Source: Acidimicrobiaceae bacterium (GTDB taxonomy: Bacteria > Actinomycetota > Acidimicrobiia > Acidimicrobiales > Bog-793). From it: a DNA stretch of 64,000 nt. This document shows, one piece after another, positions 17,509 to 35,354 of this stretch. The notes under the pieces were generated by a model. That model had not been told where the DNA came from and did no database searches. It was given only the letters and a program-made list of their open reading frames with translations. Position numbers and translations under genes: made by a program. The stretch lies in contig DAHUXW010000083.1 in assembly GCA_027306925.1 (NCBI GenBank), positions 11,609 to 75,608 of the forward strand. Direction: 5' to 3'. The first letter of the stretch is position 1, and each line of letters opens with the position of its first letter.

Positions 17509-17509
17509 C

Positions 17510-20500: not shown

Positions 20501-20608
20501 TCGCGGGTGGTCGCGGCAGGCGACGGGTGCGCTAGCCTGCCGCGGAGCCGGCGAACGCCCCGCGGGGCACGCCCGATCGTACGTGCGGCGAGGGGGACGA
20601 GGAGGGCG

Positions 20609-21457: not shown

Positions 21458-22296
21458 GCGCGGGCTTCGCCGGCGAGGCGCGGCCCCGCGGGCCGCTCAC
21501 CGCGGGCGAGCGGGTGCTCCTCGTCGACCGCAAGGACCGGCGCTATCTCGTCCGCCTCGTCGTCGCGGGCTCGTTCCAGAGCCACGCCGGCGTCGTCGAG
21601 CACGACGAGATCATCGGCGCGCGGGACGGCTGCGAGGTGGTGGCGCGCCGGCGCGACGGTGGCACCGGACCGGCGCGCCGATTCCTCGTCCTTCGCCCGA
21701 CACTCGCGGATCTCGTCGTCAAGATGCCGCGCGGGGCGCAGGTGATCTACCCGAAGGACCTCGGCGCGATCCTGATGGCCGCGGACATCCATCCCGGCGT
21801 CCGCGTCCTCGAGGCCGGGGTCGGCTCCGGCGCGCTCTCGATGACGCTGCTCAGCGCGGGCGCGGACGTGCTCGGGTACGAGGTCCGTCCCGACTTCGCC
21901 GCGCGGGCCCGTGCGAACGTCACCGATCTGCTCGGTGGTGCCGCTGCGTACCGCGTCGAGGAGCGGGACGTCTACGAGGGGATCGAGGTGCGCGAGCTCG
22001 ACCGGGTGCTGCTCGACCTTCCCGAGCCGTGGCGGGTCGTCGGGCACGCGCAGGACGCGCTCACCCCGGGCGGGATCCTGCTCGCGTACCTGCCGACGAT
22101 CAACCAGACGGCCGAGTTGCGCGAGCGGCTCGCGCGCTGCCGCTTCGCGTTCGCGGAGACCTTCGAGATCCTGCGGCGCACCTGGCACGTCGAGGGTCGC
22201 TCGGTGCGCCCGGACCACCGGATGGTCGCGCACACGGGCTTCCTCACGACCGCTCGGCGGGTGTCGTCGCGCTGGGACGAGGAATCCGCAGGCTGA
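21454..22296 (+). CDS. trmI: tRNA (adenine58-N1)-methyltransferase
   Basis: GTG 21454. Contains the GCD14/TrmI blocks QVIYPKD, VLEAGVGSGALS, DRVLLDLPEPW and HTGFLT. Confidence 0.85.
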   Translation: MSAGFAGEARPRGPLTAGERVLLVDRKDRRYLVRLVVAGSFQSHAGVVEHDEIIGARDGCEVVARRRDGGTGPARRFLVLRPTLADLVVKMPRGAQVIYPKDLGAILMAADIHPGVRVLEAGVGSGALSMTLLSAGADVLGYEVRPDFAARARANVTDLLGGAAAYRVEERDVYEGIEVRELDRVLLDLPEPWRVVGHAQDALTPGGILLAYLPTINQTAELRERLARCRFAFAETFEILRRTWHVEGRSVRPDHRMVAHTGFLTTARRVSSRWDEESAG

Positions 22297-22374: not shown

Positions 22375-22403
22375 TTGACAACCTTGTCAGCGGGGTGTTC
22401 AAT
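22375..22403 (+). promoter_or_regulatory. Candidate promoter of the sugar operon: TTGACA (22375-22380), 17-nt spacer, TTCAAT (22398-22403)
   Basis: A consensus -35 hexamer and a 4/6 -10 hexamer at canonical spacing, in the AT-richer trmI / ABC-ATPase gap. Confidence 0.3.
22376..22389. promoter_or_regulatory. Operator-like palindrome TGACAA-CC-TTGTCA overlapping the -35
   Basis: The 6-bp arms are perfectly complementary. The shape resembles LacI/GalR-type operators (TG..A...T..CA). Confidence 0.35.
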
Positions 22404-22460: not shown

Positions 22461-22476
22461 CTGACATCGATGTCAG
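22461..22476. promoter_or_regulatory. Perfect 16-bp palindrome CTGACATCGATGTCAG, candidate LacI-family operator
   Basis: It is self-complementary over all 16 bp with a central CG, and lies 41 nt upstream of the first operon gene. A LacI-family repressor is encoded in the operon (27249..28262). Confidence 0.45.
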
Positions 22477-22516: not shown

Positions 22517-23329
22517 GTGACCACAGTGCAACGGCCGACGGGCGGGCACGGCGGGGCGCCCGCCCGGCCCGTCGTCGAGGTGCGTGGGGTCTCGAAGCGC
22601 TACGGGAGCATTCACGCGCTGCGCGACGTCGACATGGCGATCTGTCCCGGCGAGGTCGTCGGGCTGGTCGGCGACAACGGAGCGGGCAAGTCGACGCTCG
22701 TCAACATCATCGCGGGCGCGCTCGCGCCGACGTCCGGGGAGATCCTCGTGGACGGGGAGCGGGTGGGCTTCAAGTCCCCGACGGACGCGCGCGACGCGGG
22801 GATCGAGACCGTGTACCAGGACCTCGCGCTCGCGCCCGACCTGAGCGTCTGGCAGAACCTGTTCCTCGGCCGGGAGCTCACGGTGCGCGGGCCGCTCGGC
22901 TGGATCGGCTGGCTCGACCGCCGTGCCATGGCCCAGCAGAGCGTCACGGACCTCGAGCGCACCCGGATCAGGATCTCCTCGGTGTCGAGCCGGGTCGGCC
23001 GGCTTTCCGGCGGACAGCGCCAGGCCGTCGCGGTGGGGCGCGCCGCGGCGTGGGGCTCGAAGGTCATCCTGATGGACGAGCCGACCGCAGCACTCGGCGT
23101 CGAGCAGCAGCAGAAGGTCGGCGAGCTGATCAAGACCGTCGCGTCCCACGGGCTGCCGGTGCTGCTCATCAGCCACAACCTCCCCCAGGTCTACGACGTC
23201 TGCGATCGCATCCTCGTGCTGTTCCACGGTCGCCTGATCGCGGACCTCCGCCCGGAGGAGACCGACATGGACGGCATCGTCGGCTGGATCACCGGGGCTG
23301 CGATGCTGTCGGGCGGGTCCACCCGGTGA
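22517..23329 (+). CDS. Sugar ABC transporter ATP-binding protein (single-NBD FrcA type)
   Basis: Walker A GDNGAGKST, signature LSGGQRQAVAV, Walker B VILMDEPTAAL. One NBD only (270 aa). Confidence 0.9.
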   Translation: MTTVQRPTGGHGGAPARPVVEVRGVSKRYGSIHALRDVDMAICPGEVVGLVGDNGAGKSTLVNIIAGALAPTSGEILVDGERVGFKSPTDARDAGIETVYQDLALAPDLSVWQNLFLGRELTVRGPLGWIGWLDRRAMAQQSVTDLERTRIRISSVSSRVGRLSGGQRQAVAVGRAAAWGSKVILMDEPTAALGVEQQQKVGELIKTVASHGLPVLLISHNLPQVYDVCDRILVLFHGRLIADLRPEETDMDGIVGWITGAAMLSGGSTR

Positions 23330-24384
23330 GCGCTCCGCAGCCACCCGCCGCCGCGCTGGACGCGCACGTCGCGGAAGGTGAGCTCGAAGCCGGTCGGGAC
23401 TCCGTCCCGGTGTTCCAGCGATTCATGGAGCGTATCGGGGCGTTCTGGACGCTCGGGGTGCTCGCGGTCCTCATCGTCGCGTTCGGCATCGCGGCTCCGA
23501 CGCTATACACGAAGGCGGCGTGGCTCGCGACGTCGAGCTTCGCAGTCGAGTACCTGATCCTCGCGATCGGCCAGACGTACGTGATCGTGACGTCGGGGAT
23601 CGACCTCGCCGACGGCGCGACCCTCGGCTTCTCGGCAATGGCCGGATCGCTGCTCATGGAGAACCTGCTCGCTTCCCACGTGTCGGGCGGCGTCGCATCC
23701 TTCGTCGGCATCCTGCTCATGCTCGCGACGGGCGCCGGGATCGGGCTCGTCAACGGGCTGATCATCACGCGGGTCAAGCTCCCGCCGTTCATCGTGACGC
23801 TCGGTACCCTCACCGCCGTCACGGGCGCGACCGACCTGTTGAACAACGGAACCGAGATCACGAACCTTCCCGGGTTCGTCACGACCCTCGGCACGGCGAA
23901 CGTTCTCTCGGGCTGGCTGCCGGTCCCCGTGCTCATCGCGCTGGCGCTCGCCGTCCTGTTCGGTCTGGGGCTCTCGCGGACCCGCTTCGGGATGCGGACG
24001 TACGCGATCGGATCGAACGAGATCGCGGCGCGGCGGGCCGGCGTTGACGTCGACCGCCATCTCGTGCGCGTCTACATGATCTCGGGCGTGCTCGCAGGAG
24101 TCGCGGGACTCCTCGTGACCGCCAACTTCTCCGCGGCCTCGCCGATCGCCGGTGCGAACGACGAGCTCTACGCGATCGCCGCCGTCGTCATCGGCGGGGC
24201 GAGCATCTTCGGCGGCAGGGGGACGATGTTCGGGACCGTGATCGGGACCGGCATCATCGCGGTGCTCACGACCGGCCTCGTCCTCGCGAACGTCCAGCCG
24301 TTCTGGCAGCAGGTCGCGATCGGTGCGGTCGTCATCGGCGCGGTCGCCGTCGACCGGGTGCGGACGCGGGCCGGCACCGACTGA
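23326..24384 (+). CDS. Sugar ABC transporter permease (RbsC/FrcC, CUT2 type)
   Basis: GTG 23326 overlaps the ATPase stop (GTGA). Multiple TM helices. Contains the conserved blocks GIDLADGATLGF and RFGMRTYAIGSNEIAARRAGV. Confidence 0.88.
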   Translation: MSAPQPPAAALDAHVAEGELEAGRDSVPVFQRFMERIGAFWTLGVLAVLIVAFGIAAPTLYTKAAWLATSSFAVEYLILAIGQTYVIVTSGIDLADGATLGFSAMAGSLLMENLLASHVSGGVASFVGILLMLATGAGIGLVNGLIITRVKLPPFIVTLGTLTAVTGATDLLNNGTEITNLPGFVTTLGTANVLSGWLPVPVLIALALAVLFGLGLSRTRFGMRTYAIGSNEIAARRAGVDVDRHLVRVYMISGVLAGVAGLLVTANFSAASPIAGANDELYAIAAVVIGGASIFGGRGTMFGTVIGTGIIAVLTTGLVLANVQPFWQQVAIGAVVIGAVAVDRVRTRAGTD

Positions 24385-24401
24385 CGCGCACGATCGAGCC
24401 T

Positions 24402-24418
24402 CCCGGCACCGTGCCGGG
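24402..24418 (+). other. Intercistronic GC hairpin CCCGGCAC-C-GTGCCGGG
   Basis: 8-nt complementary arms lie 18 nt after the permease stop. No U-tract. Confidence 0.35.
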
Positions 24419-24434
24419 CGGCGCACACGGACCT

Positions 24435-24471
24435 CTAGATAAGAGGCAACTAGATGAGCAGGCAGCTAGAT
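24435..24471 (+). repeat. Three direct copies of CTAGAT (24435, 24450, 24466) in an AT-rich spacer upstream of the SBP gene
   Basis: Read directly from the sequence. The spacing is 15 and 16 nt, and the last two copies extend to CTAGATGA. Confidence 0.6.
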
Positions 24472-24490
24472 GACTAACGAGGGGGTAGCG

Positions 24491-25546
24491 ATGTCCAACA
24501 TGCACAGGTCGAAGGGGGCTGCGAGGGTGGGCCGCAAGGCACGCATCGTCGGATCGGCGGCGGTGGTCGCGGCCGGCGCCACGGCCGCGTCGCTCGTGCT
24601 CGCCGGTGCGTCGTCCGCGGCGGACCACGCAGCGAAGGCGCCGAAGGTCGCGGCGAAGAACATCACGATCGCGCTCGTGCCGGGGCTCACGACGGACCCG
24701 TTCTACATCACGATGCACGCGGGGGCGGCGGCCGAGGCGAAGAAGCTCGGAGTGAAGCTCACGTGGCAGGGCGGCACGACCTTCAGCCCGACGACGCAGC
24801 TGCCGGTCGTGAACGCGCTCCTCGCAGAGCACCCGAGCGCGCTTCTGATCGCGCCGACCGACGTCGTCGCGCTGAAAGCGCCGATCCAGAAGTTCATCAA
24901 GGCCGGCATCCCGGTCATCACGGTGGACACGACGTTGACGGACACCTCGATCCTCGCGTCCCGGATCACGTCGAACAACTTCCAGGGCGGCGAGCAGGCG
25001 GCGGAGACCATCGCGAAGCTCGCGCACTTCAAGGGCCAGGTCGCGGTCGACAACGTCAACCCGGGGATCTCTACGACCGACGCCCGCCAGGCGGGCTTCA
25101 TCGCCCAGATCAAGAAGTACCCGAAGATGTCGGTCGCGGCGATCGAGTACAACAACGACAGCCCGACGCTCGCGGCGAGCCAGACGAAGGACATGGTCCT
25201 CAAGTTCCCGAAGCTCGTCGGGATCTTCGGCACGAACATCTACGGGGCGCAGGGCGCGGGTGAGGCGATCGCCGCGGCCGGCAAGAAGGGCAAGGTGTTC
25301 GTCGCGGCCTACGACGCCGAGCCGGCGACCGTGAAGCTGCTCAAGCAGGGCGTGATCAACGTCCTCGTGATCCAGCAGCCCGCGCTCGAGGGTGCCGACG
25401 GCGTGAAGTACGCGTACGACATCCTCACCGGGCACAAGTCGGCGGTGCCGAAGTCGACGCTGGTGCAGAACGTGGTCGGGACGACCGCGAACGCCTCGAG
25501 CCCGAGCATCTCGAAGTACTACTACCTCTCGTCGTTCTCGGGCTGA
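24491..25546 (+). CDS. Periplasmic monosaccharide-binding protein (RbsB-like, CUT2)
   Basis: ATG 24491 lies 6 nt after GAGGGGG. Signal peptide RKARIVGSAAVVAAGATAASLVLAGASSAA. Contains type I PBP blocks (ITIALVPGLTTDPFY, PVITVDT, AYDAEPATV). Confidence 0.88.
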   Translation: MSNMHRSKGAARVGRKARIVGSAAVVAAGATAASLVLAGASSAADHAAKAPKVAAKNITIALVPGLTTDPFYITMHAGAAAEAKKLGVKLTWQGGTTFSPTTQLPVVNALLAEHPSALLIAPTDVVALKAPIQKFIKAGIPVITVDTTLTDTSILASRITSNNFQGGEQAAETIAKLAHFKGQVAVDNVNPGISTTDARQAGFIAQIKKYPKMSVAAIEYNNDSPTLAASQTKDMVLKFPKLVGIFGTNIYGAQGAGEAIAAAGKKGKVFVAAYDAEPATVKLLKQGVINVLVIQQPALEGADGVKYAYDILTGHKSAVPKSTLVQNVVGTTANASSPSISKYYYLSSFSG

Positions 25547-25595
25547 GCGAGCGCGAGGAGATGGGCGGAGCCGTGGGCCGTGCGCGCGTGGCATC

Positions 25596-26282
25596 GTGCT
25601 GACGCGCCGGTCCGCGGCTTCGCGGCGGGCGAAGCCGCGCGGGCGGTCCGGCGTGAGCCCGAGTCGCGTCGAGGGGCCCGGAGGCGTCGGCGCCGTCGTC
25701 GTCGCGGGCTCGCCGGGTTCGGGCAAGACGACCTTCGGGACCGCCTTGGCCCGCGCTACCGGGTTCGCGCTGCTGGACCTCGACGACGTCGCGGGTGCGC
25801 TCACGACCGCGGCGCTCGCGCTCGCGGGCGTGGGCGTGGACGCACTCGACGACGCGCGACACGGGCCGGCGCTGCGTCACGGGCGCTACGCGTCGCTCGT
25901 TGCGACCGCAGTTGCGAACCTGGGTGTCGGGCTCGGCGTCGTGCTGGTCGCGCCGTTCAGCGACGAGGTGCGCGACCGGGTCGCCTGGTCGGCGCTCACG
26001 AGCCGGCTCGCAGCGCGGACCGCGCTCTGCTACGTGGACGTGCCGGACGAGCTGCTGCTCGCGCGCCTCGCGCGCCGCGGCGCGCCTCGGGACGCGGCGA
26101 AGCTCGCCGCGCCGGACGTCTTCGCGGCCAGCCGTGCTGCAGTGCGACCCGCGGTCGACCACGTCCGCGTCGACGGCACGCGCCCCGTCGAGGACGAGGT
26201 CGTCCGGGTCCGCCGTGTGCTCGGTCTCGCACGCGACGAACGTGGCGCGTGGCCGGGCGGAACGGCCGTGGCGCCGTGCTGA
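25596..26282 (+). CDS. P-loop kinase-like ATPase (AAA_33 / gluconate-kinase-fold)
   Basis: Walker A VVVAGSPGSGKTT followed by LLDLDD. Small size. Substrate unknown and start uncertain. Confidence 0.55.
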   Translation: MLTRRSAASRRAKPRGRSGVSPSRVEGPGGVGAVVVAGSPGSGKTTFGTALARATGFALLDLDDVAGALTTAALALAGVGVDALDDARHGPALRHGRYASLVATAVANLGVGLGVVLVAPFSDEVRDRVAWSALTSRLAARTALCYVDVPDELLLARLARRGAPRDAAKLAAPDVFAASRAAVRPAVDHVRVDGTRPVEDEVVRVRRVLGLARDERGAWPGGTAVAPC

Positions 26283-27244
26283 TCCTCAACCCGAACGTAT
26301 GCGTCGACCGCACGGTCGCGCTCGGCGAGCTCGTTCCCGGCAACGTGCACCGGACCGGGCGCGCTGCGACGACCCTCGGAGGAAAGGGCGTGAACGTCGC
26401 TCGTGTCGCGCGGGCGCTCGCCGACCGTGCGTGCATCGTCGGCTTCCTGCCCCGCGTCGACGCGGCGCGGCTCGAGGCGCTCGCGCGCGGCGAGGGTGCG
26501 GAGCTCGTCGGCGTCGAGGTCGGCGGGGACGCTCGCGTCGCGACGATCCTCCTCGAGTCCTCCGGCCGCGTGACCGTGCTCAACGAGCCGGGCGTCAGTG
26601 TCGACTCCAGCGGTTGGGACGCGCTGCTCGAGCAGGTTCGCGCCCGGCGGGAAGGGCACGCGACCCTCGTGTGCTCGGGGAGCCTGCCACCCGGCTCGCC
26701 GGTCGACGCCTACGCGCGCGCGGTCAGCCTCGGCCGGTCGCTCGGCGTCGCGACGGTGGTGGACGCGACGGGTCCGGTGCTCGAGGCGGCTCTCGGCGAA
26801 GGGCCCGACGTGGTCAGCCCGAACCTCTCCGAAGCCGAGGCCGTGCTCTTCGGCCGGACGGACGAGATCGTGGAGCCGACCGGGCCGGACGTGGTCGAAC
26901 GCGCCGCACGGGCGGCGTCCGAGCTCGTGCTGCGAGGGGCGCGGCGGGCGATCGTGAGCGCCGGGAGCCATGGAGCGGCGTTCTCGGCGGGTGCGTCCGT
27001 CGCCTGGTGCGCCGCGCCCGAGGTCCGGGTCGTGAACCCGATCGGCGCGGGCGACTCCCTCGTCGGCGGCCTGGTCCACTCGCTCGAGGCGGGGGAGGCG
27101 TTCGACACGGCCGTCCGATTCGCGCTCGCGGTCGCGTCGGCCTCCTGCGAGGAGCCCCTCGCCGGCGGCGTCGACGCCGCGCGAGTCCACGAGCTGCTCG
27201 GCTCGCTCGGGGCGTCCGAGCCCGTCGGCGCGGGACCGGGCTGA
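26276..27244 (+). CDS. PfkB-family sugar-phosphate kinase of the 1-phosphofructokinase / tagatose-6-phosphate kinase (FruK/LacC) type
   Basis: GTG 26276 overlaps the upstream stop by 7 nt. Contains LNPNVCVDRT, TLGGKGVNVARV and NPIGAGDSLVGG (PfkB signature 2). Confidence 0.8.
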   Translation: MLILNPNVCVDRTVALGELVPGNVHRTGRAATTLGGKGVNVARVARALADRACIVGFLPRVDAARLEALARGEGAELVGVEVGGDARVATILLESSGRVTVLNEPGVSVDSSGWDALLEQVRARREGHATLVCSGSLPPGSPVDAYARAVSLGRSLGVATVVDATGPVLEAALGEGPDVVSPNLSEAEAVLFGRTDEIVEPTGPDVVERAARAASELVLRGARRAIVSAGSHGAAFSAGASVAWCAAPEVRVVNPIGAGDSLVGGLVHSLEAGEAFDTAVRFALAVASASCEEPLAGGVDAARVHELLGSLGASEPVGAGPG

Positions 27245-27248
27245 AGCC

Positions 27249-28262
27249 GTGACGACCCCGACGCTGCGCGACGTCGCACGGCTCGCCGGCGTGAGCATCA
27301 AGACGGTCTCGCGCGTCGTGAACGGCGACGCGGAAGTCGCCGAGTCGACCGCGGGACGCGTCCGCGAGGCGATCGGCTCGCTCGGCTACCGCCCGAACCC
27401 TCTCGCCCGCTCGCTGCGCACCGGACGGGACGAGGCGATCGGCCTCGTCGTCGAGACGATCGGCGACCCGTTCTTTGCCGCGGTGACCGAGGCCGTCGAG
27501 GAGGCCGCACGCGAGGCCGGGCTGTTCCTCATCATCGCGAGCGCTGGCGCGACGGTCGCCGAGGAGCGCGCGGTCGTGCTCGGGCTGCTCCACCGGTCGG
27601 TCTCGGGGCTGATCGTCGTTCCGTGCCTGCTCGACTACGCGCACGAGCAGCTCCCGATCGGCCCCGGTGCGGTCCCGGTCGTGTTCATCGACCGCACCCC
27701 GGAGGGCGTCGACGCGGACACGGTGGTCGTCGACAACGAGGACAGCGCGCGTCGGGCCACCGCGCACCTCGTGGCCCGGGGTCACCGGCGGATCGCGTTC
27801 GTCGGCACGGCGCTCGAGCGCGTCCCGCTCCGGCACCGCGTCGACGGGTACCGGCTCGCGCTCGTCGACGCCGGCATCGACTTCGACCCGCGACTCGTCA
27901 TCTCGCACACCCGTGCCCCGGACGGCGGCGGTGCGATCCTCGACGGCGTCCTCGCACCCCCCGACCCCGCGACGGCCGTGCTGTCCGCGAACGCGGTCGC
28001 CGCGCTCGACGTCGTCCGCGAGCTTCACGGCACGGGGCGCACGGATGTCGCGTTCGTGAGCTTCGACGACTTCCCGATCGCCGACTCGCTGACGCCGCCG
28101 GTCACCGTGCACCGTCAGGACCCGACGCTCATGGGTCGGACCGCGACCGAGCTCCTGCTGCGCAGGTTGCGCGGCGAGGAGGGACCGCCCCGCCACGTCG
28201 TGCTGCCGACCACGTTCCTCGAACGGGGCTCGGGCGAGATCCCGCCTCCGGGCCCGCGCTGA
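27249..28262 (+). CDS. LacI-family transcriptional regulator
   Basis: The N-terminal HTH TLRDVARLAGVSIKTVSRVVNG is followed by a periplasmic-binding-protein-like sugar sensor domain. Confidence 0.9.
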   Translation: MTTPTLRDVARLAGVSIKTVSRVVNGDAEVAESTAGRVREAIGSLGYRPNPLARSLRTGRDEAIGLVVETIGDPFFAAVTEAVEEAAREAGLFLIIASAGATVAEERAVVLGLLHRSVSGLIVVPCLLDYAHEQLPIGPGAVPVVFIDRTPEGVDADTVVVDNEDSARRATAHLVARGHRRIAFVGTALERVPLRHRVDGYRLALVDAGIDFDPRLVISHTRAPDGGGAILDGVLAPPDPATAVLSANAVAALDVVRELHGTGRTDVAFVSFDDFPIADSLTPPVTVHRQDPTLMGRTATELLLRRLRGEEGPPRHVVLPTTFLERGSGEIPPPGPR

Positions 28263-28296
28263 CCGCACGACCTCGACGAGACCAGGGAGACACGAC

Positions 28297-29235
28297 ATGG
28301 CGGACACGAGACCCACGACGAGCACCCGCGCCGGGCTCGGACCGATCGCACGGCCGGACGGCACGCTCGCGATCGTCGCGATGGACCAGCGGAACACGTT
28401 GCGCAGGATGCTCGCGGCCGTGGGCCGCCCGACCGGTCCGGAGGAGCTGCGCGCGTTCAAGGTCGACGTGACCGTGGCGCTCAGCCCGGCCGCGAGCGCG
28501 GTCCTCCTCGATCCGGAGTTCGGAGTCCCCGCCGTTCGCGAGGCGAAGGCGATGGCCCCGGGCTGCGCGACACTCGTGGCGGTGGAGCCGCCGGAACGCG
28601 ACACGTGGCAGGGGGAACCGCGCGCGCGGAGCGACCCGGAGCGCACGGCCGCCTGGGTGACGGAGATGGGCGGCGACGCCGTGAAGCTGCTCGTGCAGCT
28701 TCGTCCGGACCGTGTGCACGGGCCAGGCGAGCCGGATCTCGTCGAGGAGGTCGTCACCGTCGTGCGGGCGGTCGTCGAGGACTGTGCCGCGGCGGGTGTG
28801 CCATCGGTCGTCGAGACGCTCCTCTACGCGCTCCCCGGCGAGGAAGGGCTCGACCCCGGACGGCGCGCGGAGCTCATCGTCGAGTCCGCTCGGATCCTCA
28901 CCGAGACCCAGCCGGACCTGTTGAAGCTCGAGTATCCGGGGGACGCGGCGGCGTGCAGGGCGGTCGCGGCGGCCGTGACCGTTCCGTGGGCGATGCTCTC
29001 GGCGGGAATGCCGCTCTCGGAGTTCCTCGACGCGGTGCGCACCTCGTGCGACGAGGGCGGCGCATCCGGCTTCATCGCCGGCCGGGTCTACTGGAAGGAG
29101 GCGGTCGCGCTCGCGGGCGCGGAGCGGCGCGCGTTCCTCGCCGGCCCGGCACGCGAGCGGCTCGACCAGTCCCTCGCCGCGATGGAGGGCCGTGCCCGAC
29201 CGTGGGCGAGCGTGCAGGCCGGCTCGGGCCGGTGA
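28297..29235 (+). CDS. Class I aldolase of the LacD / YihT family (tagatose-1,6-bisphosphate or sulfofructose-phosphate aldolase-like)
   Basis: The blocks align by eye with LacD: IVAMDQRNTLRRML (AFDQRGALKRMM), VLLDPEFGVPA (ILLDPEYGLPA), AVKLLVQL, VETLLY, LLKLEYP (Schiff-base Lys context) and FIAGRVYW. Confidence 0.75.
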   Translation: MADTRPTTSTRAGLGPIARPDGTLAIVAMDQRNTLRRMLAAVGRPTGPEELRAFKVDVTVALSPAASAVLLDPEFGVPAVREAKAMAPGCATLVAVEPPERDTWQGEPRARSDPERTAAWVTEMGGDAVKLLVQLRPDRVHGPGEPDLVEEVVTVVRAVVEDCAAAGVPSVVETLLYALPGEEGLDPGRRAELIVESARILTETQPDLLKLEYPGDAAACRAVAAAVTVPWAMLSAGMPLSEFLDAVRTSCDEGGASGFIAGRVYWKEAVALAGAERRAFLAGPARERLDQSLAAMEGRARPWASVQAGSGR

Positions 29236-30644
29236 GCGGGCGCAGCGTGCTGCTCGTCGGCATCGACGTCGGGACGACCGTGACGAAGGCCGGCCTCGTC
29301 GACGACCGCGGGCGCGAGCTCGCGCGCACCGCCGTGCCGACCTGCTGGGAGGCGGCGCCGACCGGCGGGAACGCGCACCCGGAGGTGCTGTTCTCGTCCG
29401 TGCGCGCGGCGCTCGCCGAGCTGCTCGAGGCGGCACCGGCGGGCGACATCGTCGGGTGTGGGATCACGAGCATGGCGGAGACCGTCGTGCTCCTCGACGC
29501 CTCGGGCGTCCCGATCGAGCCCGCGGTCGCGTGGTACGACACGAGGGCCGCGGCCGAGCGCGACGAGCTGCTCGCGGAGTTCGGCGGCGCGTTCGGCCGC
29601 ACGACGGGGCTCGGGACCTCGCAGATCCCCACGATCGCGACGCTCCGCTGGCTCGTGCGCAATGTCCCCGGGACCCGAGCCGCGGCGAGAGCGCTCGGCG
29701 TCGCCGAATGGATCGCCCACCGGCTCGGGGGTGAGGACGCGGCGGAGGCGTCGATCGCGTCCCGCACCGGCGGCTTCTCCGTCGTGCGCCGCACCTGGTG
29801 GTCCGACGCGATCCGCTGGGCCGGCGCGCGCGACTCGCTCTTCCCGCCGGTGCGTCAGGCCGGGACGTCGTTCGGCCGCGTGTCGGGCGGCGCGGTGACG
29901 GACGGTCTCGAGCGCCTGCGGGGCGCAGTGCTCACCGTCGGCGGACACGACCACCTGTGCGCGTCGGTCGGCAACGGCGTGACGCGCCCGTCGCAGGTCA
30001 TGGACTCGTGCGGCACGGCGGAGGCGCTCATACGCTCGGTGGCCGTGCACGACGCCCCCGACCCCTCGGCCGGTCTCGCGCTCGGGATCGAGACCGGCTG
30101 CCACGTGCTCCCGGACAGCTACGCCCTCGTGGGCGGTCTCGCGCTCGGGCTCGTGCTCATCCCGCTGCTCGCGAAGCTCGGCGCCCGGACCGAGCACGGG
30201 TGCACCTCGCTCGACGCCGAGGCGTTGCTGGTCGACTTCGACGGCATCGCCGAGCTGAGCGACGCCGACGGCCCGGTGCCGCCGGTCGGCGCGTTGCGCG
30301 TGACCGACGGCTCCGCGGGGTGGCCCGTGCCGCGCCCGGGCGAGCTCCCGGCGCTCACCTGGCGGCGTGCCCTCGGTCGGGCGGTTGCGGGTTCCCGCGA
30401 GCTGCTCGACGGCCTCGAGCAGCTCGGAGGGCCGGTCACCGAGGTCCGGCTGAGCGGCGGCTGGTCCACGAACCCGCTGCTGCGAGAGCTCAAGTCCGCG
30501 GCGTTCGTCAACCCGGTGTACCCCCGGGTGGCCGAAGCGGGCATCCGCGGCGCGGCGCTGCTCGCCGGGCTCGCCGCGGAGTGCTTCACCAGCGTGGACG
30601 ACCTCCCCGAGCCGGCCGTCGCGGGCGATCTGGTGACGCCGTGA
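29232..30644 (+). CDS. FGGY-family carbohydrate kinase
   Basis: GTG 29232 overlaps the aldolase stop (GTGA). Contains VGIDVGTTVTKAG, GGHDHLCASVG, and the C-terminal block RLSGGWSTNPLL. Confidence 0.8.
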   Translation: MSGRSVLLVGIDVGTTVTKAGLVDDRGRELARTAVPTCWEAAPTGGNAHPEVLFSSVRAALAELLEAAPAGDIVGCGITSMAETVVLLDASGVPIEPAVAWYDTRAAAERDELLAEFGGAFGRTTGLGTSQIPTIATLRWLVRNVPGTRAAARALGVAEWIAHRLGGEDAAEASIASRTGGFSVVRRTWWSDAIRWAGARDSLFPPVRQAGTSFGRVSGGAVTDGLERLRGAVLTVGGHDHLCASVGNGVTRPSQVMDSCGTAEALIRSVAVHDAPDPSAGLALGIETGCHVLPDSYALVGGLALGLVLIPLLAKLGARTEHGCTSLDAEALLVDFDGIAELSDADGPVPPVGALRVTDGSAGWPVPRPGELPALTWRRALGRAVAGSRELLDGLEQLGGPVTEVRLSGGWSTNPLLRELKSAAFVNPVYPRVAEAGIRGAALLAGLAAECFTSVDDLPEPAVAGDLVTP

Positions 30645-31489
30645 GCGCGTACGCGCCCGGCGCGACGGACCCGCCTGGGCACGCGGAGCTCGCCGTGGGG
30701 ACCGCCACGTCGGCGTCGGCCGGCAAGCACGTCCGCCTCGGCCGCATCTTCGCCGCCGACGGCCGCACGGTCGTGCTCCCCGTCGACCACGGGACGATGC
30801 TCGGTCGGGTCGCCGGACTCGAGGACCCGGTCGCGATGATCGAGGCGATGCTCCCACTCGGGTGCGACGCCTTCCTGCTCGGTCCGGGGATCGCGCGTCG
30901 GACCGCCGGTCTCTTCGCCTACCGCGGCGCGCCTGCGCGCCTGCTCACCGTCGACACGCACTGGCGGGAGGGGGACGCGGGCAGGAGCGTGCTCATGACG
31001 TCGCTCGAGCGCGCCTGCGCGCTCGGCGTGGACGCCGTGAAGATGCTCATGCCCTGGGACGTCCCACCCGCGGAGCGCGCCGCGACGGCCGCACTCGTCG
31101 GCGAGGTCGTCGGGGCCGCGGAGCACCACGGCATCCCGGTGATGCTGGAGCCGATCTGCCTGCGCCTGCCTCGCGGCGACGAGGCGGTCGCGATCGAGGC
31201 GGACGGTTGCCGCATGGCCGTGGAGCTCGGCGCGGACATCGTGAAAGTGGCGTACCCCGGTCGTCGGGAGCTGCTCGAGACCTGGTGCCGCGAGCTCGGG
31301 GTCCCGGTCGTCGTTCTCGGTGGTCCCGCGGGGGGGAGTGCGGACGAGCTCGTCGAGATGGTCGGCGACGCGATGTCCGCCGGCTCCCGCGGCATCACGA
31401 TCGGTCGCAGGGTGTGGCAGCGGCCGCTCCAGGAAGCGGCGGCGCTCCTCGAGCGCCTCGCAGCCGTCGTCCACCCCGTGGCTGGCTGA
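30641..31489 (+). CDS. DhnA/FbaB/LsrF-type class I aldolase family protein
   Basis: GTG 30641 overlaps the FGGY stop (GTGA). Contains VLPVDHG, VDAVKML, MLEP, ADIVKVAYPG (catalytic Lys context) and GITIGRRVWQ. Confidence 0.75.
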   Translation: MSAYAPGATDPPGHAELAVGTATSASAGKHVRLGRIFAADGRTVVLPVDHGTMLGRVAGLEDPVAMIEAMLPLGCDAFLLGPGIARRTAGLFAYRGAPARLLTVDTHWREGDAGRSVLMTSLERACALGVDAVKMLMPWDVPPAERAATAALVGEVVGAAEHHGIPVMLEPICLRLPRGDEAVAIEADGCRMAVELGADIVKVAYPGRRELLETWCRELGVPVVVLGGPAGGSADELVEMVGDAMSAGSRGITIGRRVWQRPLQEAAALLERLAAVVHPVAG

Positions 31490-31496
31490 CGCGCGC

Positions 31497-32363
31497 ATGC
31501 CGAGCCCCGACGGAGAGGTGCCGGGAGTCGACGCGACCGCGGGGGGACGTCGTGCGGTGGTCGTGACCGGAGGAGCGAGCGGGATCGGCGCCGCGGTTGC
31601 CGAGCGACTCGCCTCGCACGGCGCGGAGGTCGCGCTGCTCGACCGGGACGAGGTCGCCCTGCGACGGGTCGTCGACCGGATCTCGACGCGCGGGGAGCGG
31701 GCCGCCGCGTTCTGCGTGGACGTGACCGACGCCGAGGCGCTCGAGCGCGCGGTCGACGAGTTCACCGGTCGGACGGGCCGACTCGACGTGCTCGTGACGA
31801 GCGCCGGGATCCAGCGCTACGGCGACGTCCTCGAGACCTCGCGGGCGCTCTGGGACGAGGTGCTCGCGGTGAACGTCACCGGCACGTTCCTCGCGGCTCG
31901 CGCGTGCCTGCCCGCGCTCCGGCGCTCGCGGCGGGGGGCTGTCGTCGTCGTCTCGTCCGTCCAGGGCGCCGCGAGCCAGACCGGAGTCGTCGCATACGCG
32001 GCGAGCAAGGGCGCGCTCGGCGCGTTCGCACGCGCCATGGCCCTCGACGAGGCGCGACACGGGGTGCGCGTGAACAGCGTGAGCCCGGGCTCGGTCGAGA
32101 CGCCGATGCTCCGGGCATCCGCGGAGCGCTTCGGCGGAGCGGCCGGCGCGGACGAGCTGCTCGACCGGTGGGGACGGGCGCACCCGCTGGGCCGCCTCGC
32201 CACCCCGGACGAGGTCGCGTCAGTCGTCGCCTTCCTCGCGAGCGAGGATGCCGCGTTCGTCACCGGCGAGGACGTGCGAGTCGACGGCGGACTGCTCGCC
32301 GGGATCCCGGTGCTCCTCCCGGAGCCGGGTCGGTCCGGCGGCGAGCCCGAGGCGCCGCGGTGA
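31497..32363 (+). CDS. Short-chain dehydrogenase/reductase
   Basis: Contains VVTGGASGIGAA (TGxxxGIG), the catalytic YAASKGAL (YxxxK) and PGSVETPM. Confidence 0.88.
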   Translation: MPSPDGEVPGVDATAGGRRAVVVTGGASGIGAAVAERLASHGAEVALLDRDEVALRRVVDRISTRGERAAAFCVDVTDAEALERAVDEFTGRTGRLDVLVTSAGIQRYGDVLETSRALWDEVLAVNVTGTFLAARACLPALRRSRRGAVVVVSSVQGAASQTGVVAYAASKGALGAFARAMALDEARHGVRVNSVSPGSVETPMLRASAERFGGAAGADELLDRWGRAHPLGRLATPDEVASVVAFLASEDAAFVTGEDVRVDGGLLAGIPVLLPEPGRSGGEPEAPR

Positions 32364-33385
32364 TGCGCGTCGCCCTCGGGCACGTCGAGACATTCGACGA
32401 CGACGTCGCGACGTTTGCCCGCCAGCTCGGGTTGCGTGGCGTGCAGCTCCACACGCCGACGAACCTGTCGACCGACGCCGGGCACTGGCGCCTCGACGAG
32501 CTCGTCGCGCTCTGCCGGCGCGTCGAGTCGCACGGCCTCGTGCTCGAAGGGCTCGAGAACGTGCCGCGCGCGCACTTCGACCGGGTCCAACAGGGGCTGC
32601 CCGGCCGCGACGAGCAGCTCGAGAACTTCTGCAAGACCGTCGAGAACATGGGCGCGGCCGGGATCCCGGTGCTCGGCTACAACTTCATCGTCACCTACGT
32701 CTGGCGGACGGACGTCGCGGCGAGCGGGCGTGGGGGAGCGCGCGTCACGGCGTTCGACCTCGCACAGGTCGCCGCGGGGAACGCGCTCGCCGGCTACAAG
32801 CTCTCCCCGACCGGGGAGCTCGCGGCGCCGGTCACGGCGGAGAAGCTCTGGGCCAACTACGGGTACTTCCTCGACGCGGTGCTACCGGTTGCGGAGCGGG
32901 CCGGGGTGCGCCTCGCGCTCCACCCGGACGACCCGCCCGTGGAGGAGCCGATCGGCGGCGCCGCTCGCATCTTCACCTCACCGGAATCGCTCGTGGCCGC
33001 GTCCGACCTGGCGGGAGGGAGCCCCGCGTGGGGGCTGGACCTGTGCCTCGGGACCGTGTCGGAGATGGGGGGCGAGGAAGCGGTCGACGCGGTGATCGAC
33101 ACGCTCGCCGCGTCGGGCCGTGTGTGCTACGTGCACTTCAGGGACGTCCTCGGCACCGTGCCGTCGTTTCGCGAGTGCTTTCTCGGCGAGGGCAACCTGC
33201 GCCCCGAGCGCGTGGTCAAGCGGCTCGCCGACGCCGGTTTCGACGGCTTCGTGATCGACGACCACGTCCCGGCCATGCTTTTCGACGCAGACACGTGGGT
33301 GCGCGTCGACACGACCGCGTACTGCAGCCGGGGGCGCGCGCACGCGGTCGGGTACCTCCAGGGGGTGATCGACGCGTGCCGGTGA
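32363..33385 (+). CDS. uxuA: Mannonate dehydratase (UxuA family)
   Basis: The blocks match E. coli UxuA by eye: GIPVLGYNFIVTYVWRTD, FLDAVLPVAERAGVRLALHPDDPP, VCYVHFRDV and IDDHVPAM. ATG 32363 overlaps the SDR stop (TGATG). Confidence 0.78.
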   Translation: MRVALGHVETFDDDVATFARQLGLRGVQLHTPTNLSTDAGHWRLDELVALCRRVESHGLVLEGLENVPRAHFDRVQQGLPGRDEQLENFCKTVENMGAAGIPVLGYNFIVTYVWRTDVAASGRGGARVTAFDLAQVAAGNALAGYKLSPTGELAAPVTAEKLWANYGYFLDAVLPVAERAGVRLALHPDDPPVEEPIGGAARIFTSPESLVAASDLAGGSPAWGLDLCLGTVSEMGGEEAVDAVIDTLAASGRVCYVHFRDVLGTVPSFRECFLGEGNLRPERVVKRLADAGFDGFVIDDHVPAMLFDADTWVRVDTTAYCSRGRAHAVGYLQGVIDACR

Positions 33386-34665
33386 GCTCGTGTCCCGACC
33401 GCGAGCCCCCGCACTGGCTCCGATCGAGCTCGCACCGGGCCGCGCTCGGAGACGAGGCGCGGCGCCTGCTCAGGTTCTTCCGGGCGACGGTCGCCCCCGA
33501 CGGGCGCTTCGTCGAGCTCGACGACGACGGCCGACCGATGCCCACCGGATGCCCGCCGGCGACCTCTCCCCGCCAGCAGCTCCTCACCGTCGCGCGGGCG
33601 GTGCACAGCTACGCGATCGGCGAGCTCCTCGGCGTCCCGGGCTGCGGGTCGATCGTCGAACGCGGGCTCGCAGAGATCGTGGAGCGACACCGGGACGACC
33701 GCGCCGGTGGGTACTTCGCATCGGTGACCTCCTCCGGCCCGCTGCTCGACACGAAGAGCGCGTACGACCACGCCTTCGTCCTGCTCGCGGCGTCGAGCGC
33801 GACGAGTGCCGGGCACGACGCGGCCGGCCCGCTCTTCGAGGACGTCCTCGGCGTCATCGACGAGCACTTCTGGTCCGAGCGCGACGGTGCGACGGCGGAG
33901 ACGTTCAGCCGCTCCTGGGACGAGACCGAGCCGTACCGGGGCGCGAACTCGAACATGCACCTGTGCGAGAGCTTCCTCGCGGCCGGTGCGCTGACCGGCG
34001 ACGCCGCAATCGGCCACCGCTCGGTGCGCATCGCGGAACGTCTGATCGACGGCTACGCGCGGAGCAACGGCTGGCTTCTCCCCGAGCACTACGACCGCGA
34101 CTGGCGGGCGCTGTTCGAGTACAACGCCGACAAGCCGGACGACCCGTTCCGACCCTACGGGGCGACGATCGGGCATCTCGTCGAGTGGTCGCGGCTTCTG
34201 ATCGGCGCGTGGCTGCTCGAAGGAGCGCACGACGCCTGGCTGCCGGACGCAGCGCAGGCGCTGTTCGCACGGGCCGTCGCGAGCGGCTGGGACGCGGTGA
34301 ACGGCGGGCTCGTCTACACCGTCGGCTGGGACGGCGCACCGGTGAACGACGACCACTACTGGTGGCCCGTCGCCGAGGGGATCGGGACGAGCAGCTATCT
34401 CGCGCGGGTGACCGGCGACGCGTCCTACGAGGCGTGGTACCGGCGCTTCTGGGACTTCGCGGCCGCGCACCTCGTGGACCACGACCGCGCGGGCTGGTAC
34501 GCGCAGCTGGACCGCGAGAACCGGCGCAAGGTGCATCCCTGGTACGGAAAGCCTGACCTGTACCACGTGCTCCAGGCGTGCGTGCTACCCGCCTACCGTC
34601 TCGCGCCGAGCGTCGCGGCCGCGGTGATCGCCGGCGAGGACCACGGCACGGGTGCGACCACGTGA
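33382..34665 (+). CDS. AGE-superfamily (N-acylglucosamine 2-epimerase / YihS-like) aldose-ketose isomerase or epimerase
   Basis: GTG 33382 overlaps the uxuA stop (GTGA). Contains alpha/alpha-6 barrel blocks: [43 protein letters not shown] and PDLYHVLQA. Confidence 0.8.
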
Positions 34666-35354
34666 CGTCCGGTCCGGGGGGCCGGGCGCACGGCCCCGCG
34701 TTCCTGTTCGACCTCGACGGCACGCTGCTCGACAGCGTCTACCAGCACGTCGTCGCGTGGCACGAGGCGCTGCTCGACGCCGGGATCGCGGTGCCCGCGT
34801 GGAGCGTGCACCGCAGGATCGGGATGAGCGGGGGACTCTTCCTCGGCGCGCTCGCCCACGAGACGGGACGGGCGTTCGACGAGCACGACGTGGGCCGCCT
34901 GACCGCGGCGCACGCCGCGGCGTTCGAGCGCATGCGCGCATCGGTCCGTCCACTCCCGGGGGCGAGGGAGCTGCTCGCTCACCTGAGCGAGCGCGAGGTG
35001 CCGTGGGCGATCGCGACGAGCGGGCTGGACGCATCGGCGAGGCCCGCGCTCGCGCTGCTCGGGGTGCCCGACGCGGTGCTCGTGACGCGCGACGACGTGC
35101 GGCACGCGAAGCCAGATCCCGACCTGTTCCTCGCCGCAGCCACCGCGATCGGCGCGGACCCGTCGCACTGCCTGGTCGTGGGGGACTCGGTGTGGGACCT
35201 GCTCGCGTCGCGGCGCGCCGGGATCCTCGGGCTCGGTGTCATGACCGGCGGGTACGGGGCCGGCGAGCTCGAGCGCGCGGGCGCGTACCGCGTCTACGAA
35301 GATCCCGCGGACCTGCTCGATCGGCTGTACGAGGTCGGCGTGCGCCCGAGCTGA
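34662..35354 (+). CDS. HAD-IA family phosphatase (phosphoglycolate phosphatase / beta-PGM-like)
   Basis: GTG 34662 overlaps the AGE stop (GTGA). Contains [12 protein letters not shown] (DxDGT), IATSG, KPDPD and VVGDSVWD. Confidence 0.85.

Follow-up and report, generated by a model that had tools for sequence, protein, structure and literature searches.

Which sugar is taken up and degraded by the products of a thirteen-gene cluster of a soil actinobacterium, and by what route? The cluster lies in the 64,000-nucleotide stretch of DNA that was analysed (the window) and comprises 13 ORFs (g1–g13), all on the plus strand between 22517 and 35354 as an earlier note on this DNA had described, with a GC3 of 0.89–0.96. 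The seven stop/start overlaps listed in that note were confirmed base by base: GTGA overlaps at 23326, 29232, 30641, 33382 and 34662, a TGATG overlap between g10 and g11 at 32361–32365, and a 7-nt overlap between g4 and g5 at 26276–26282; the remaining intergenic gaps measure 85, 49, 4, 34 and 7 nt. High-GC actinobacterial operons often contain short gene overlaps, so those seen here show tight packing and nothing unusual. One coordinate is corrected: the reading frame of the PfkB gene has its stop at 27244 and not at 27252. The SDR gene (g10) most likely starts at ATG 31497, and the start of g4 is uncertain, a public protein of 93% identity being shorter by 19 residues. Public annotation of a metagenome contig independently yields these products for LacI (337 aa), the LacD-like protein (312 aa) and FGGY (470 aa), and reproduces the 4-nt overlap seen in the window. 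No prominent terminator-like site is evident (two found, 1.6 expected), and profile searches (Pfam, NCBIfam) bore out all eleven family assignments made previously.

The sole operator/promoter region detected lies upstream of g1, which argues against the independent transcription units that had been raised as an alternative. It contains two putative LacI-type operators on the plus strand: O1 (TGACAACCTTGTCA, 22376–22389), which overlaps a TTGACA -35-like hexamer, and O2 (TGACATCGATGTCA, 22462–22475), a TGACA-N4-TGTCA match forming the core of a perfect 16-bp palindrome (CTGACATCGATGTCAG) with CG at its centre. Within the window TGACA-N4-TGTCA matches only twice (0.44 expected), both times upstream of g1. 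Related actinobacterial loci have this motif 40–210 nt ahead of their first core gene, and 1.36 Mb of related loci hold 36 exact occurrences compared with the ~0.2 expected from base composition. The LacI-family repressor g6 (27249–28262, 337 aa; LacI HTH and Peripla_BP_3 domains in Pfam) would bind both operators, and transcription is predicted to begin upstream of g1.

Related loci (80, of which 48 are full-length) were collected with the LacD-like aldolase as seed, so that g7 is present in all by design. Among the full loci the ABC importer, LacI (48/48), the FGGY kinase and the LacD-like aldolase are near-universal, and g1–g8 constitute a widely conserved core, the other five genes being lineage-specific add-ons. 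The thirteen genes had been presented as a single enzyme set; what holds of this is the conserved eight-gene core, but comparative genomics shows that the set is not fixed and that the 3′ add-ons vary. Only the two closest loci, L001 and L003, carry all thirteen, and among close relatives the 3′ end is DhnA-AGE in some and SDR-UxuA-mannitol-DH-Zn-ADH in L008. Variable neighbours in related loci also include polyol dehydrogenases, aldose dehydrogenases and DUF4432 proteins, the last of which we take to be mutarotase-like.

This variability bears on the idea, which we rate as improbable, that the DhnA, SDR, UxuA, AGE and HAD genes are unrelated modules appended by chance and acting on other substrates. 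The occurrence of SDR, UxuA and HAD in just 3/48 full loci, the confinement of the complete set to two loci and the changeable 3′ end all fit such a mosaic, as does the location of the cluster inside an otherwise conserved trmI-arc-dop-proteasome region, which suggests insertion of the cluster. The add-ons nevertheless overlap translationally, both among themselves and with the core, and the only detectable operator region is common to both. SDR-UxuA also joins the core at different places, following FGGY in L008 and the SBP in L038, in arrangements unrelated to one another, and AGE recurs with a position and orientation relative to the core that vary among loci; these recurrences argue for functional linkage.

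Sugar uptake would proceed through an ABC importer of the CUT2 type whose ATPase has one NBD. The ATPase g1 (22517–23329, 270 aa; ABC_tran, E 5e-31; 47/48 full loci) has a single nucleotide-binding domain and matches positions 2–235 only of the ~500-position RbsA, YtfR and AraG models, while the permease g2 (23326–24384, 352 aa; BPD_transp_2, E 7e-39; 47/48) is AlsC/MglC/RbsC-like at scores under the NCBIfam cut-offs. The periplasmic/lipoprotein-type sugar-binding protein g3 (24470–25546, 358 aa; Peripla_BP_4, E 2e-53; 46/48) belongs to the Avi_5339 subfamily. Its best PDB match is 5DKV, Agrobacterium vitis Avi_5339 or Avis_5339 (sequence E 3e-61; Foldseek E 2e-31, TM 0.83), with which it has 9 of 10 canonical RbsB ligand positions in common at an identity of only 40–45%. 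The ligand in the 5DKV structure is, we take it, D-tagatopyranose. A more distant g3 homolog, from Deinococcus, has GH125 and GH38 mannosidases in its gene cluster. Avi_5339 itself has been reported as a mannoheptulose binder, an unpublished observation quoted in PMC5507952.

Orthologous-looking transporter genes (39–47% identity) adjoin a LacD-family aldolase gene on Rhizobiaceae and Aureimonas plasmids, in clusters that also encode a ROK kinase carrying a fused P-loop domain with homology to g4 (hhalign 96%, E 5e-9). S. meliloti pSymB, which presumably bears a tagatose transporter, did not turn up when the plasmid collection was searched for homologs of g3 (E 1e-30). A mannoheptulose cluster of Rhodobacteraceae/Rhizobiaceae with an Avi_5339-type transporter has been put forward as a purely hypothetical proposal (PMC5507952). 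It resembles our operon in its transporter, Avi_5339-type SBP, adjacent LacD-family aldolase and g4-like domain, but the alpha-proteobacterial version has the ROK::P-loop fusion and a SorC-type regulator and no FGGY, PfkB, LacI, AGE, DhnA, SDR or UxuA; the aldolases are just 31% identical and the pathway there is a prediction. The Avi_5339 match of the SBP and the alternation of two isomerases described below serve as clues to the substrate.

The three kinases are of three different folds, as claimed before. The P-loop AAA_33 small-molecule-kinase-like protein g4 (25596–26282, 228 aa; AAA_33, E 3e-15; 37/48) gave no close relative in a PDB sequence search; its structure model (pLDDT 84.7) is nearest in fold to the putative kinase 2RHM, the EFI 'sugar kinase' 4EUN, gluconokinase and shikimate kinase. 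Among the homologs of g4 are fusions with GntR DNA-binding domains, so this protein could have a regulatory role. The PfkB-family kinase g5 (26276–27244, 322 aa; 41/48) falls in the FruK/LacC/Pfk-2 subgroup, exceeds the NCBIfam subfamily cut-off for 'hexose kinase' TIGR03168 (218.4 vs 216.4) and shows 30–31% identity to Pfk-2 and FruK of E. coli, with the SGSLPPG motif kept. It retains equivalents of Pfk-2 R29, R90 and S139, the phosphosugar Arg/Arg/Ser triad. The FGGY-family kinase g8 (29232–30644, 470 aa; FGGY_N, E 5e-33; FGGY_C, E 9e-8; 47/48) scores far under the cut-off of every NCBIfam equivalog.

Two non-homologous class I aldolases of the DeoC superfamily are present, each with its Schiff-base lysine, in line with the earlier description. 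The LacD/YihT-family enzyme g7 (28297–29235, 312 aa; DeoC, E 4e-24) matches YihT (E 1e-26) and LacD (E 6e-16) in the PDB, is 34% identical to sulfofructose-phosphate aldolase YihT and 31% to a Rhizobium LacD-like protein, and keeps the catalytic Lys (YihT K193) and phosphate-binding Ser/Arg (S226, R253); these conserved residues do not tell substrates apart. The accessory DhnA/FbaB/MJ0400/LsrF-type enzyme g9 (30641–31489, 282 aa; DeoC, E 4e-28; 20/48) has MJ0400 as best PDB match (E 3e-25) and keeps the Lys equivalent to LsrF K203.

Family chemistry and the conservation pattern lead us to infer that the core probably takes up a sugar resembling mannose or tagatose and cleaves it by way of a ketose carrying two phosphates. 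FGGY and/or the P-loop protein would act as primary kinase, giving the ketose monophosphate, PfkB with its phosphosugar-recognition triad would add the second phosphate, and the LacD/YihT-family aldolase would split a hexose-derived ketose bisphosphate into DHAP and glyceraldehyde-3-P or, in the heptulose case, cleave the ketose bisphosphate to DHAP and erythrose-4-P. Candidate hexoses are D-tagatose, D-talose and D-mannose, and candidate C7 sugars D-mannoheptulose and related heptoses. There is precedent for C7 bisphosphate logic in cellulolytic clostridia, where PFK is described as phosphorylating a C7 ketose phosphate and FBP aldolase as cleaving the product to DHAP and erythrose-4-P (PMC7029132). 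That sedoheptulose-1,7-bisphosphate route differs in belonging to the central pentose-phosphate pathway, where PFK and FBA are housekeeping enzymes; it is no operon dedicated to import and catabolism. Among the points against the scheme, it calls for two kinases but three are conserved, leaving at least one kinase beyond it, and a bisphosphate route offers no obvious position for the UxuA-like and SDR genes.

As the earlier note held, no characterised orthologous pathway was found: literature searches returned no experimentally characterised related cluster, and no protein reached an NCBIfam equivalog cut-off. The closest known systems are partial likenesses. The Gram-positive tagatose-6-phosphate pathway (LacC/LacD) has in common with the operon a FruK/LacC/Pfk-2-subgroup PfkB kinase bearing the phosphosugar triad, a class I aldolase of the LacD family in which the Schiff-base lysine is present, and the sequence from ketose phosphate to ketose bisphosphate to two smaller sugar phosphates. 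The window, however, lacks LacA/LacB galactose-6-P isomerase and a PTS, entry here being by ABC importer and FGGY and P-loop kinases; g5 and g7 score 91 vs 410 and 52 vs 432 against the LacC and LacD equivalog cut-offs, and g7 is nearer to YihT than to LacD. The D-tagatose cluster of E. coli Nissle 1917 is alike in bringing in a free ketohexose by a CUT2-type ABC importer and converting it through kinase steps to tagatose-1,6-bisphosphate, the substrate for aldol cleavage (PMC9720028); its accessory aldose-1-epimerase-like gene has a counterpart in the DUF4432 genes that take that part in some related loci. It differs in its class II (metal-dependent) aldolase, single PfkB tagatose kinase and DeoR regulator, and a survey of such clusters lists Proteobacteria, Firmicutes, Fusobacteria and Spirochaetes and no Actinobacteria (PMC9720028).

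Interconversion of aldose and ketose would fall here to g12 (33382–34665, 427 aa; GlcNAc_2-epim, E 4e-99; 15/48), which belongs to the YihS/mannose-isomerase subgroup of AGE-superfamily isomerases and would use the free sugar, and in other genomes to a PMI-like isomerase (match to 1QWR, E 1e-18) with the sugar phosphate as its substrate. No locus carries both AGE, found in 19, and the PMI-like gene, found in 27 (Fisher p 1.6e-4, uncorrected for phylogeny and with many loci truncated). This choice of isomerases also suits ordinary D-mannose/D-fructose use, in which AGE would yield fructose or the PMI-like enzyme fructose-6-P, FGGY and PfkB would give fructose-1,6-bisphosphate, and the two class I aldolases would cleave it, with no unusual intermediate. 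D-mannose isomerase is indeed the best specific model of the AGE protein, PfkB is similar to FruK and Pfk-2, FBP aldolases include DhnA-type enzymes, and mannosidases adjoin the Deinococcus homolog; we nonetheless think this explanation unlikely. A kinase and PMI suffice to take mannose to fructose-6-P, and a strongly conserved, dedicated PfkB and LacD-family aldolase would duplicate housekeeping glycolysis. The AGE protein falls well under the mannose-isomerase equivalog cut-off (394 vs 600 bits), 34 of the 80 actinobacterial loci, some of them truncated, show neither isomerase, and the alpha-proteobacterial version consists of the aldolase and two kinase domains without an isomerase.

Under the bisphosphate scheme, the remaining add-ons may have supplementary roles. 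The DhnA aldolase could serve a second ketose-bisphosphate stereochemistry. The classical SDR g10 (31497–32363, 288 aa; adh_short_C2, E 1e-64), marginally above the 'glucose 1-dehydrogenase' subfamily cut-off (216.6 vs 215), and the short UxuA-family protein g11 (32363–33385, 340 aa; UxuA, E 2e-46) could form an oxidative side branch from aldose to aldonate to 2-keto-3-deoxy-acid. Although under the NCBIfam cut-off (138 vs 191) and without a ~50-residue insert, g11 retains E. coli UxuA residues H233/C271/H298/D351 and the HPDDPP motif. The pair is present as previously noted, but as a rare accessory module, so the missing KdgK/Eda that the earlier note had stressed says little about the core. 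The HAD-IA phosphatase g13 (34662–35354, 230 aa; Hydrolase and HAD_2 matches in Pfam; beta-PGM-family/sugar-phosphatase-like, under NCBIfam cut-offs) may act as a relief valve for sugar phosphates.

An Lsr-like system for AI-2 or a phosphorylated diketone, with FGGY as LsrK and the DhnA-type enzyme as LsrF, is very improbable. The FGGY protein matches the AI-2 kinase model and PDB 5YA0 (E 9e-18), g9 is alignable with LsrF, and the importer is of the CUT2 type, but the scores lie far from the cut-offs (LsrK 86 vs 528 bits, LsrF 80 vs 297, LsrB 41 vs 384), neither LsrG nor an LsrR/SorC regulator is present, DhnA is non-core, and the core PfkB and LacD-like aldolase have no place in Lsr; the resemblance pointed out earlier is thus weak. 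A sulfo-EMP-like route for sulfoquinovose or another sulfosugar, with isomerase, PfkB-fold kinase and aldolase from the same families as YihS/YihV/YihT (E. coli; Arthrobacter variant), is largely refuted and least probable of all: YihS is the best PDB relative of g12 (E 3e-80; 39% identity, H248/E251/H383/R55 retained) as YihT is of g7, and 'sulfofructosephosphate aldolase' is the name that homologs of the aldolase bear in some metagenome annotations, but the 'sulfo-EMP logic' of the earlier note fails at the residue level, g12 lacking two of the three sulfonate-pocket residues (Gln362 is Ala, Gln379 is Pro) as defined in PMC8006165 and g5 the YihV K27/N109/R138 triad (Lys/Asn/Arg), in place of which it has phosphosugar residues of the TR/RRS type, while AGE lies outside the conserved core and Pfam searches of all 13 genes found no sulfoquinovosidase, sulfolactaldehyde reductase/dehydrogenase or sulfonate exporter.

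With moderate confidence we favour the reading that the operon serves the LacI-repressed catabolism of a neutral manno/lyxo-configured C6 or C7 monosaccharide via a ketose bisphosphate, to which the lineage-specific 3′ add-ons would broaden entry or exit.

The operon occupies positions 22517 to 35354 of the window and comprises thirteen + strand ORFs encoding, in order, an ABC ATPase (g1), a permease (g2), a binding protein (SBP; g3), a P-loop protein (g4), a PfkB kinase (g5), a LacI regulator (g6), a LacD-like aldolase (g7), an FGGY kinase (g8), a DhnA-type aldolase (g9), an SDR (g10), a short UxuA (g11), an AGE isomerase (g12) and a HAD phosphatase (g13). Third-position GC in these ORFs is 0.89–0.96, the window being ~72% GC, and the LacI, aldolase and FGGY products are identical in the public annotation of an independent metagenome contig. 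The seven stop/start overlaps described in the earlier note are all present on the + strand, base for base: GTGA at 23326, 29232, 30641, 33382 and 34662, TGATG at 32361–32365, and a 7-nt overlap at 26276–26282. The other junctions are gaps of 4, 7, 34, 49 and 85 nt. Since high-GC operons normally contain such short overlaps, we read these as tight co-translation and nothing exceptional. Two gene boundaries were corrected, the PfkB gene stopping at 27244 and the SDR gene starting most plausibly at 31497; the start of g4 carries a 19-codon ambiguity. Between the permease and SBP genes, a hairpin at 24398–24422 folds no better than shuffled sequences (z −0.94) and was dropped as a feature. Ahead of the SBP gene, the sole good Shine-Dalgarno-like match, AAGAGG in the 24440–24476 region, is spaced for an out-of-frame mini-ORF of 7 codons (ATG 24453 to TAA 24476), which runs across the annotated SBP start at 24470; this arrangement could be translational coupling or chance.

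Every family call that had been made from motifs is confirmed by Pfam (single-NBD ABC ATPase, BPD_transp_2 permease, Peripla_BP_4 SBP, AAA_33, PfkB, LacI, FGGY, DeoC/LacD twice, SDR, UxuA, AGE family and HAD). The permease (E 7e-39) and SBP (E 2e-53) matches are those of a CUT2 importer; the fused double-NBD ATPase of ~500 aa that is the CUT2 norm is absent, and g1, of 270 aa, matches the N-terminal half only of the RbsA/AraG/YtfR models, a single-NBD variant also found in Rhizobium and Deinococcus homologs. None of the thirteen proteins reaches an NCBIfam equivalog cut-off, and only two pass a subfamily cut-off, both narrowly: g5 for 'hexose kinase' (218.4 against 216.4) and g10 for 'glucose 1-dehydrogenase' (216.6 against 215). 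The family assignments are correct, but a specific function can be transferred to none of the proteins.

A scan of the LacD-like protein against 185,579 species genomes returned 80 loci, against which all thirteen proteins were searched; occurrence was counted in the 48 loci of at least 18 kb. This separates a core from a set of add-ons. The core, beside the seed aldolase, consists of LacI (48/48 loci), the ATPase, permease and FGGY kinase (47/48 each), the SBP (46/48), PfkB (41/48) and the P-loop kinase (37/48). The add-ons are the DhnA aldolase (20/48), the AGE isomerase (15/48), and the SDR, UxuA and HAD proteins (3/48 each). The core is common to many soil Actinobacteria, including Acidimicrobiales, Solirubrobacterales, Pseudonocardia, Asanoa, Streptomyces and Nakamurella, and occurs with another gene order in cultured Pseudonocardia, Asanoa, Streptomyces, Actinacidiphila, Nakamurella and Leucobacter. 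Variable neighbours include a PMI-like cupin (27 loci) matching B. subtilis PMI (1QWR, E 1e-18), a second DhnA/LsrF-like aldolase, dehydrogenases of the Gfo/Idh/MocA, mannitol-dehydrogenase and Zn-ADH families, and DUF4432 proteins. AGE (19 loci) and the PMI-like gene never co-occur (Fisher p 1.6e-4, with kinship among loci ignored), which suggests a single isomerase slot with non-homologous fillers. AGE and the SDR-UxuA pair are each attached to the core at differing positions and orientations, which argues for functional linkage over mere inheritance. The sugar operon is genuine, well conserved and uncharacterised; the idea of a fixed thirteen-enzyme novel pathway does not survive these counts.

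The complete thirteen-gene set is found, among the related loci, only in the two nearest to the window, L001 and L003. L001 (protein identity 88–97%) comes from an Acidimicrobiales soil MAG, the closest relative at genome level; L003 is 58–91% identical. Both loci are in one MAG bin, DATLRJ01 (isolate SMAG_U13901), which holds two complete versions of the operon: either the bin mixes populations or the operon is duplicated. As in the window, trmI immediately precedes the operon in L003, and dop lies downstream of it in L001. In the window, trmI (21268–22296) flanks the operon on one side; on the other side a convergent ferredoxin gene is followed by a proteasome ATPase gene (arc/mpa; C-terminus GQYL), with dop, prcB and pafA downstream. 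The trmI-to-pafA region (21268–42392) is otherwise conserved across actinobacteria, so that the 12.8-kb operon looks like an insertion. L001 and L003 share this trmI/dop-region placement, and remoter loci carry the core in other contexts.

The palindrome TGACA-N4-TGTCA has exactly two matches in the 64-kb window (0.44 expected), at 22376–22389 and 22462–22475. Both predicted operators lie inside the 220-nt gap upstream of g1, and the second forms the core of the perfect palindrome CTGACATCGATGTCAG. In the related loci the motif occurs 36 times in 1.36 Mb, against ~0.2 expected from base composition, with the consensus TGACAACGNTGTCA. It is conserved across 23 of these loci, nearly all sites falling 40–210 nt upstream of whichever gene opens the local core arrangement (ATPase, PfkB or FGGY). 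The regulator g6 combines HTH_LacI with a periplasmic-binding-protein-like effector domain, and the upstream sites are central-CG palindromes; the pattern is what would be expected as the signature of this LacI-family repressor. No second operator and no promoter-like or terminator-like site was seen inside the operon, and the two predicted operators support a single regulated unit beginning at g1. A sigma-70 promoter scan gave zero matches, which is uninformative for a 72% GC actinobacterium.

The description that fits the operon best is a variant of the ketose-bisphosphate type of pathway (tagatose-6-phosphate/EMP-like), one whose periphery is modular. A sugar would be imported, isomerised from aldose to ketose where needed, phosphorylated first by the FGGY and/or P-loop kinase and then by PfkB, and the resulting bisphosphate cleaved by the LacD-like aldolase to DHAP and an aldose phosphate. 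This is in our judgement the most likely mechanism, and a moderately probable one. The PfkB protein is 30–31% identical to Pfk-2 and FruK and carries Arg/Arg/Ser at the equivalents of Pfk-2 R29/R90/S139 together with SGSLPPG, and is best read, from these residues, as a kinase that would turn a ketose monophosphate into a bisphosphate. The catalytic lysine is conserved in both aldolases (YihT K193 in g7, LsrF K203 in g9). In comparison with the tagatose-6-phosphate enzymes, g5 has the phosphate triad and scores 91 on the LacC equivalog (cut-off 410), and g7 has the Schiff-base lysine and scores 153 against 184 for the PRK12858 subfamily and 52 against 432 for the lacD equivalog. Three kinases are conserved, one more than the scheme needs. 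Of the add-ons, DhnA may serve as a second aldolase and the SDR with the short UxuA as an oxidative side branch, with HAD as a putative phosphatase. Literature searches found no characterised orthologous cluster; they turned up just the tag cluster of E. coli Nissle and a mannoheptulose scheme that is itself hypothetical. To that extent the claim that the enzyme set fits no single known pathway is upheld.

Clues to the substrate come from the binding protein. The closest solved structure to g3 is 5DKV, of Agrobacterium vitis Avis_5339 (sequence E 3e-61; Foldseek E 2e-31, TM 0.83). The ligand in 5DKV is probably alpha-D-tagatopyranose. At ten canonical E. coli RbsB ligand positions g3 equals 5DKV at nine, and both differ from RbsB at four. 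A more distant SBP, 36% identical to g3, is encoded on a Deinococcus sp. KNUC1210 plasmid (L091, 4733–14670), where LacI and a single-NBD ABC transporter cluster with a ROK kinase and with mannosidases of the GH125 and GH38 families; these neighbours link the transporter subfamily to mannose-type sugars. Taken with the AGE/PMI-like slot, the SBP and cluster clues point to manno/lyxo-configured sugars, and the candidate substrates are a hexose (tagatose, talose, mannose) or a heptose/heptulose.

The latter candidate opens an alternative in which the core would serve C7 sugars as a dedicated pathway and include a new family of P-loop sugar kinases. According to unpublished data of Almo and Gerlt, Avi_5339 binds mannoheptulose, and a hypothetical Rhodobacteraceae route has been drawn from mannoheptulose through the 7-phosphate and 1,7-bisphosphate to DHAP and erythrose-4-phosphate, encoded by a cluster of such a transporter with a LacD-family aldolase, a ROK kinase and a P-loop kinase (PMC5507952). 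An Avi_5339-like SBP, a LacD-family aldolase and a P-loop kinase are likewise together here, and the arrangement of the Rhodobacteraceae cluster is seen on Rhizobium, Agrobacterium and Aureimonas plasmids, whose transporter proteins are 39–47% identical to g1–g3. D-mannoheptulose, related plant heptuloses or heptitols, or heptoses released from lipopolysaccharide would be phosphorylated twice, and the heptulose-1,7-bisphosphate cleaved to DHAP and erythrose-4-phosphate. The orphan g4 would then represent a new sugar or sugar-phosphate kinase family, and the two class I aldolases would divide their substrates by C3/C4 stereochemistry (LacD-like, lyxo/tagato; DhnA, arabino/fructo). The extended operon could, through AGE, SDR, the short UxuA and a kinase, also take the sugar on to a 3-deoxy-heptulosonate. 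For g4 no close solved relative was found by sequence; its model (pLDDT 84.7) resembles 2RHM (putative kinase), 4EUN (EFI 'sugar kinase'), gluconokinase and shikimate kinase. The P-loop domain fused to a plasmid ROK kinase matches g4 at profile level (96%, E 5e-9), but direct BLAST against this alpha-proteobacterial domain aligns the Walker A region only, and the profile match shows family-level homology only. Some g4 homologs (P0133, P0134, P0136, P0138) are fused to a GntR-type helix-turn-helix DNA-binding domain, which makes a regulatory role for g4 possible and hints that such a domain may be usable as a ligand- or ATP-sensing module. Overall, we regard the dedicated C7 pathway as rather unlikely.

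The sulfo-EMP logic that the earlier note saw in YihS, YihV and YihT counterparts fails on residue signatures in two of the three proteins, and is rejected. YihS has a sulfonate pocket of Arg55-Gln362-Gln379, and YihV a sulfonate triad of Lys27-Asn109-Arg138 without the TR motif or RRS triad (PMC8006165). The AGE protein, 39% identical to E. coli YihS, keeps catalytic H248/E251/H383 and R55 but has Ala for Q362 and Pro for Q379. PfkB is 23% identical to YihV and lacks Lys27, Asn109 and Arg138. In the LacD-like aldolase K193, S226 and R253 of YihT are kept, S227 is Ala and A26 (water-mediated in YihT) is Thr; the equivalent residues also bind phosphate and so do not discriminate between substrates. 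No sulfoquinovosidase, SLA reductase/dehydrogenase or sulfonate exporter is found among the thirteen genes or their flanks. A hexuronate pathway for the whole operon is rejected: the SDR and UxuA genes are add-ons seldom present, and genes of the KdgK and Eda types are missing from the operon, g5 scoring just 26 bits on KDG kinase models. The previously proposed fructuronate/mannonate branch lacking KdgK and Eda holds as to that absence and to the short UxuA, which conserves E. coli UxuA H233, C271, H298, D351 and HPDDPP (presumably metal or catalytic residues), lacks a ~50-residue insert and scores 138 on the NCBIfam UxuA model (cut-off 191); the branch is, however, a rare add-on module. The suggested LsrK/LsrF echo in the FGGY-DhnA pair is weak and an Lsr/AI-2 system is rejected, since scores fall far below equivalog cut-offs (LsrK 86 against 528, LsrF 80 against 297, LsrB 41 against 384) and Pfam places no LsrG or LsrR/SorC regulator in the operon.

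Elsewhere in the window, the opposite strand upstream (15943–20025, −) carries zwf (15943–17544) and a transaldolase gene (18892–20025), separated by an unassigned coding stretch of ~1.3 kb. Their proximity is probably coincidental; such pentose-phosphate neighbours would be relevant if the operon yields erythrose-4-phosphate or heptulose phosphates. A putative 315-aa ORF between transaldolase and trmI (20018–20965, +) has zero Pfam matches. An 816-aa methyl-accepting chemotaxis protein with HAMP and MCPsignal domains (11554–14004, −) is encoded in this Acidimicrobiales-looking genome, and a 553-aa ORF (46605–48266, +), about twice the normal ThyX length, has two ThyX (Thy1) matches, which suggests a tandem-duplicated or fused flavin-dependent thymidylate synthase.

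The operon is a good target for pathway discovery, of moderate surprise value. For experiments, the analysis narrows the ligands to a few candidates, predicts an operator, names cultured bacteria that carry the core, and gives residue signatures by which sulfoglycolysis is excluded. No member of the core has an assigned substrate. The transporter, the aldolase family and the P-loop kinase domain of the core are found again on plasmids of Rhizobiaceae. Solving the core would correct hundreds of 'ribose transporter / tagatose aldolase / xylulokinase' mis-annotations and define the function of the orphan P-loop kinase family. It may also show the consumption of rare ketoses or C7 sugars by soil and plant-associated bacteria; were the C7 reading true, the core would be the first bacterial pathway dedicated to seven-carbon sugars.
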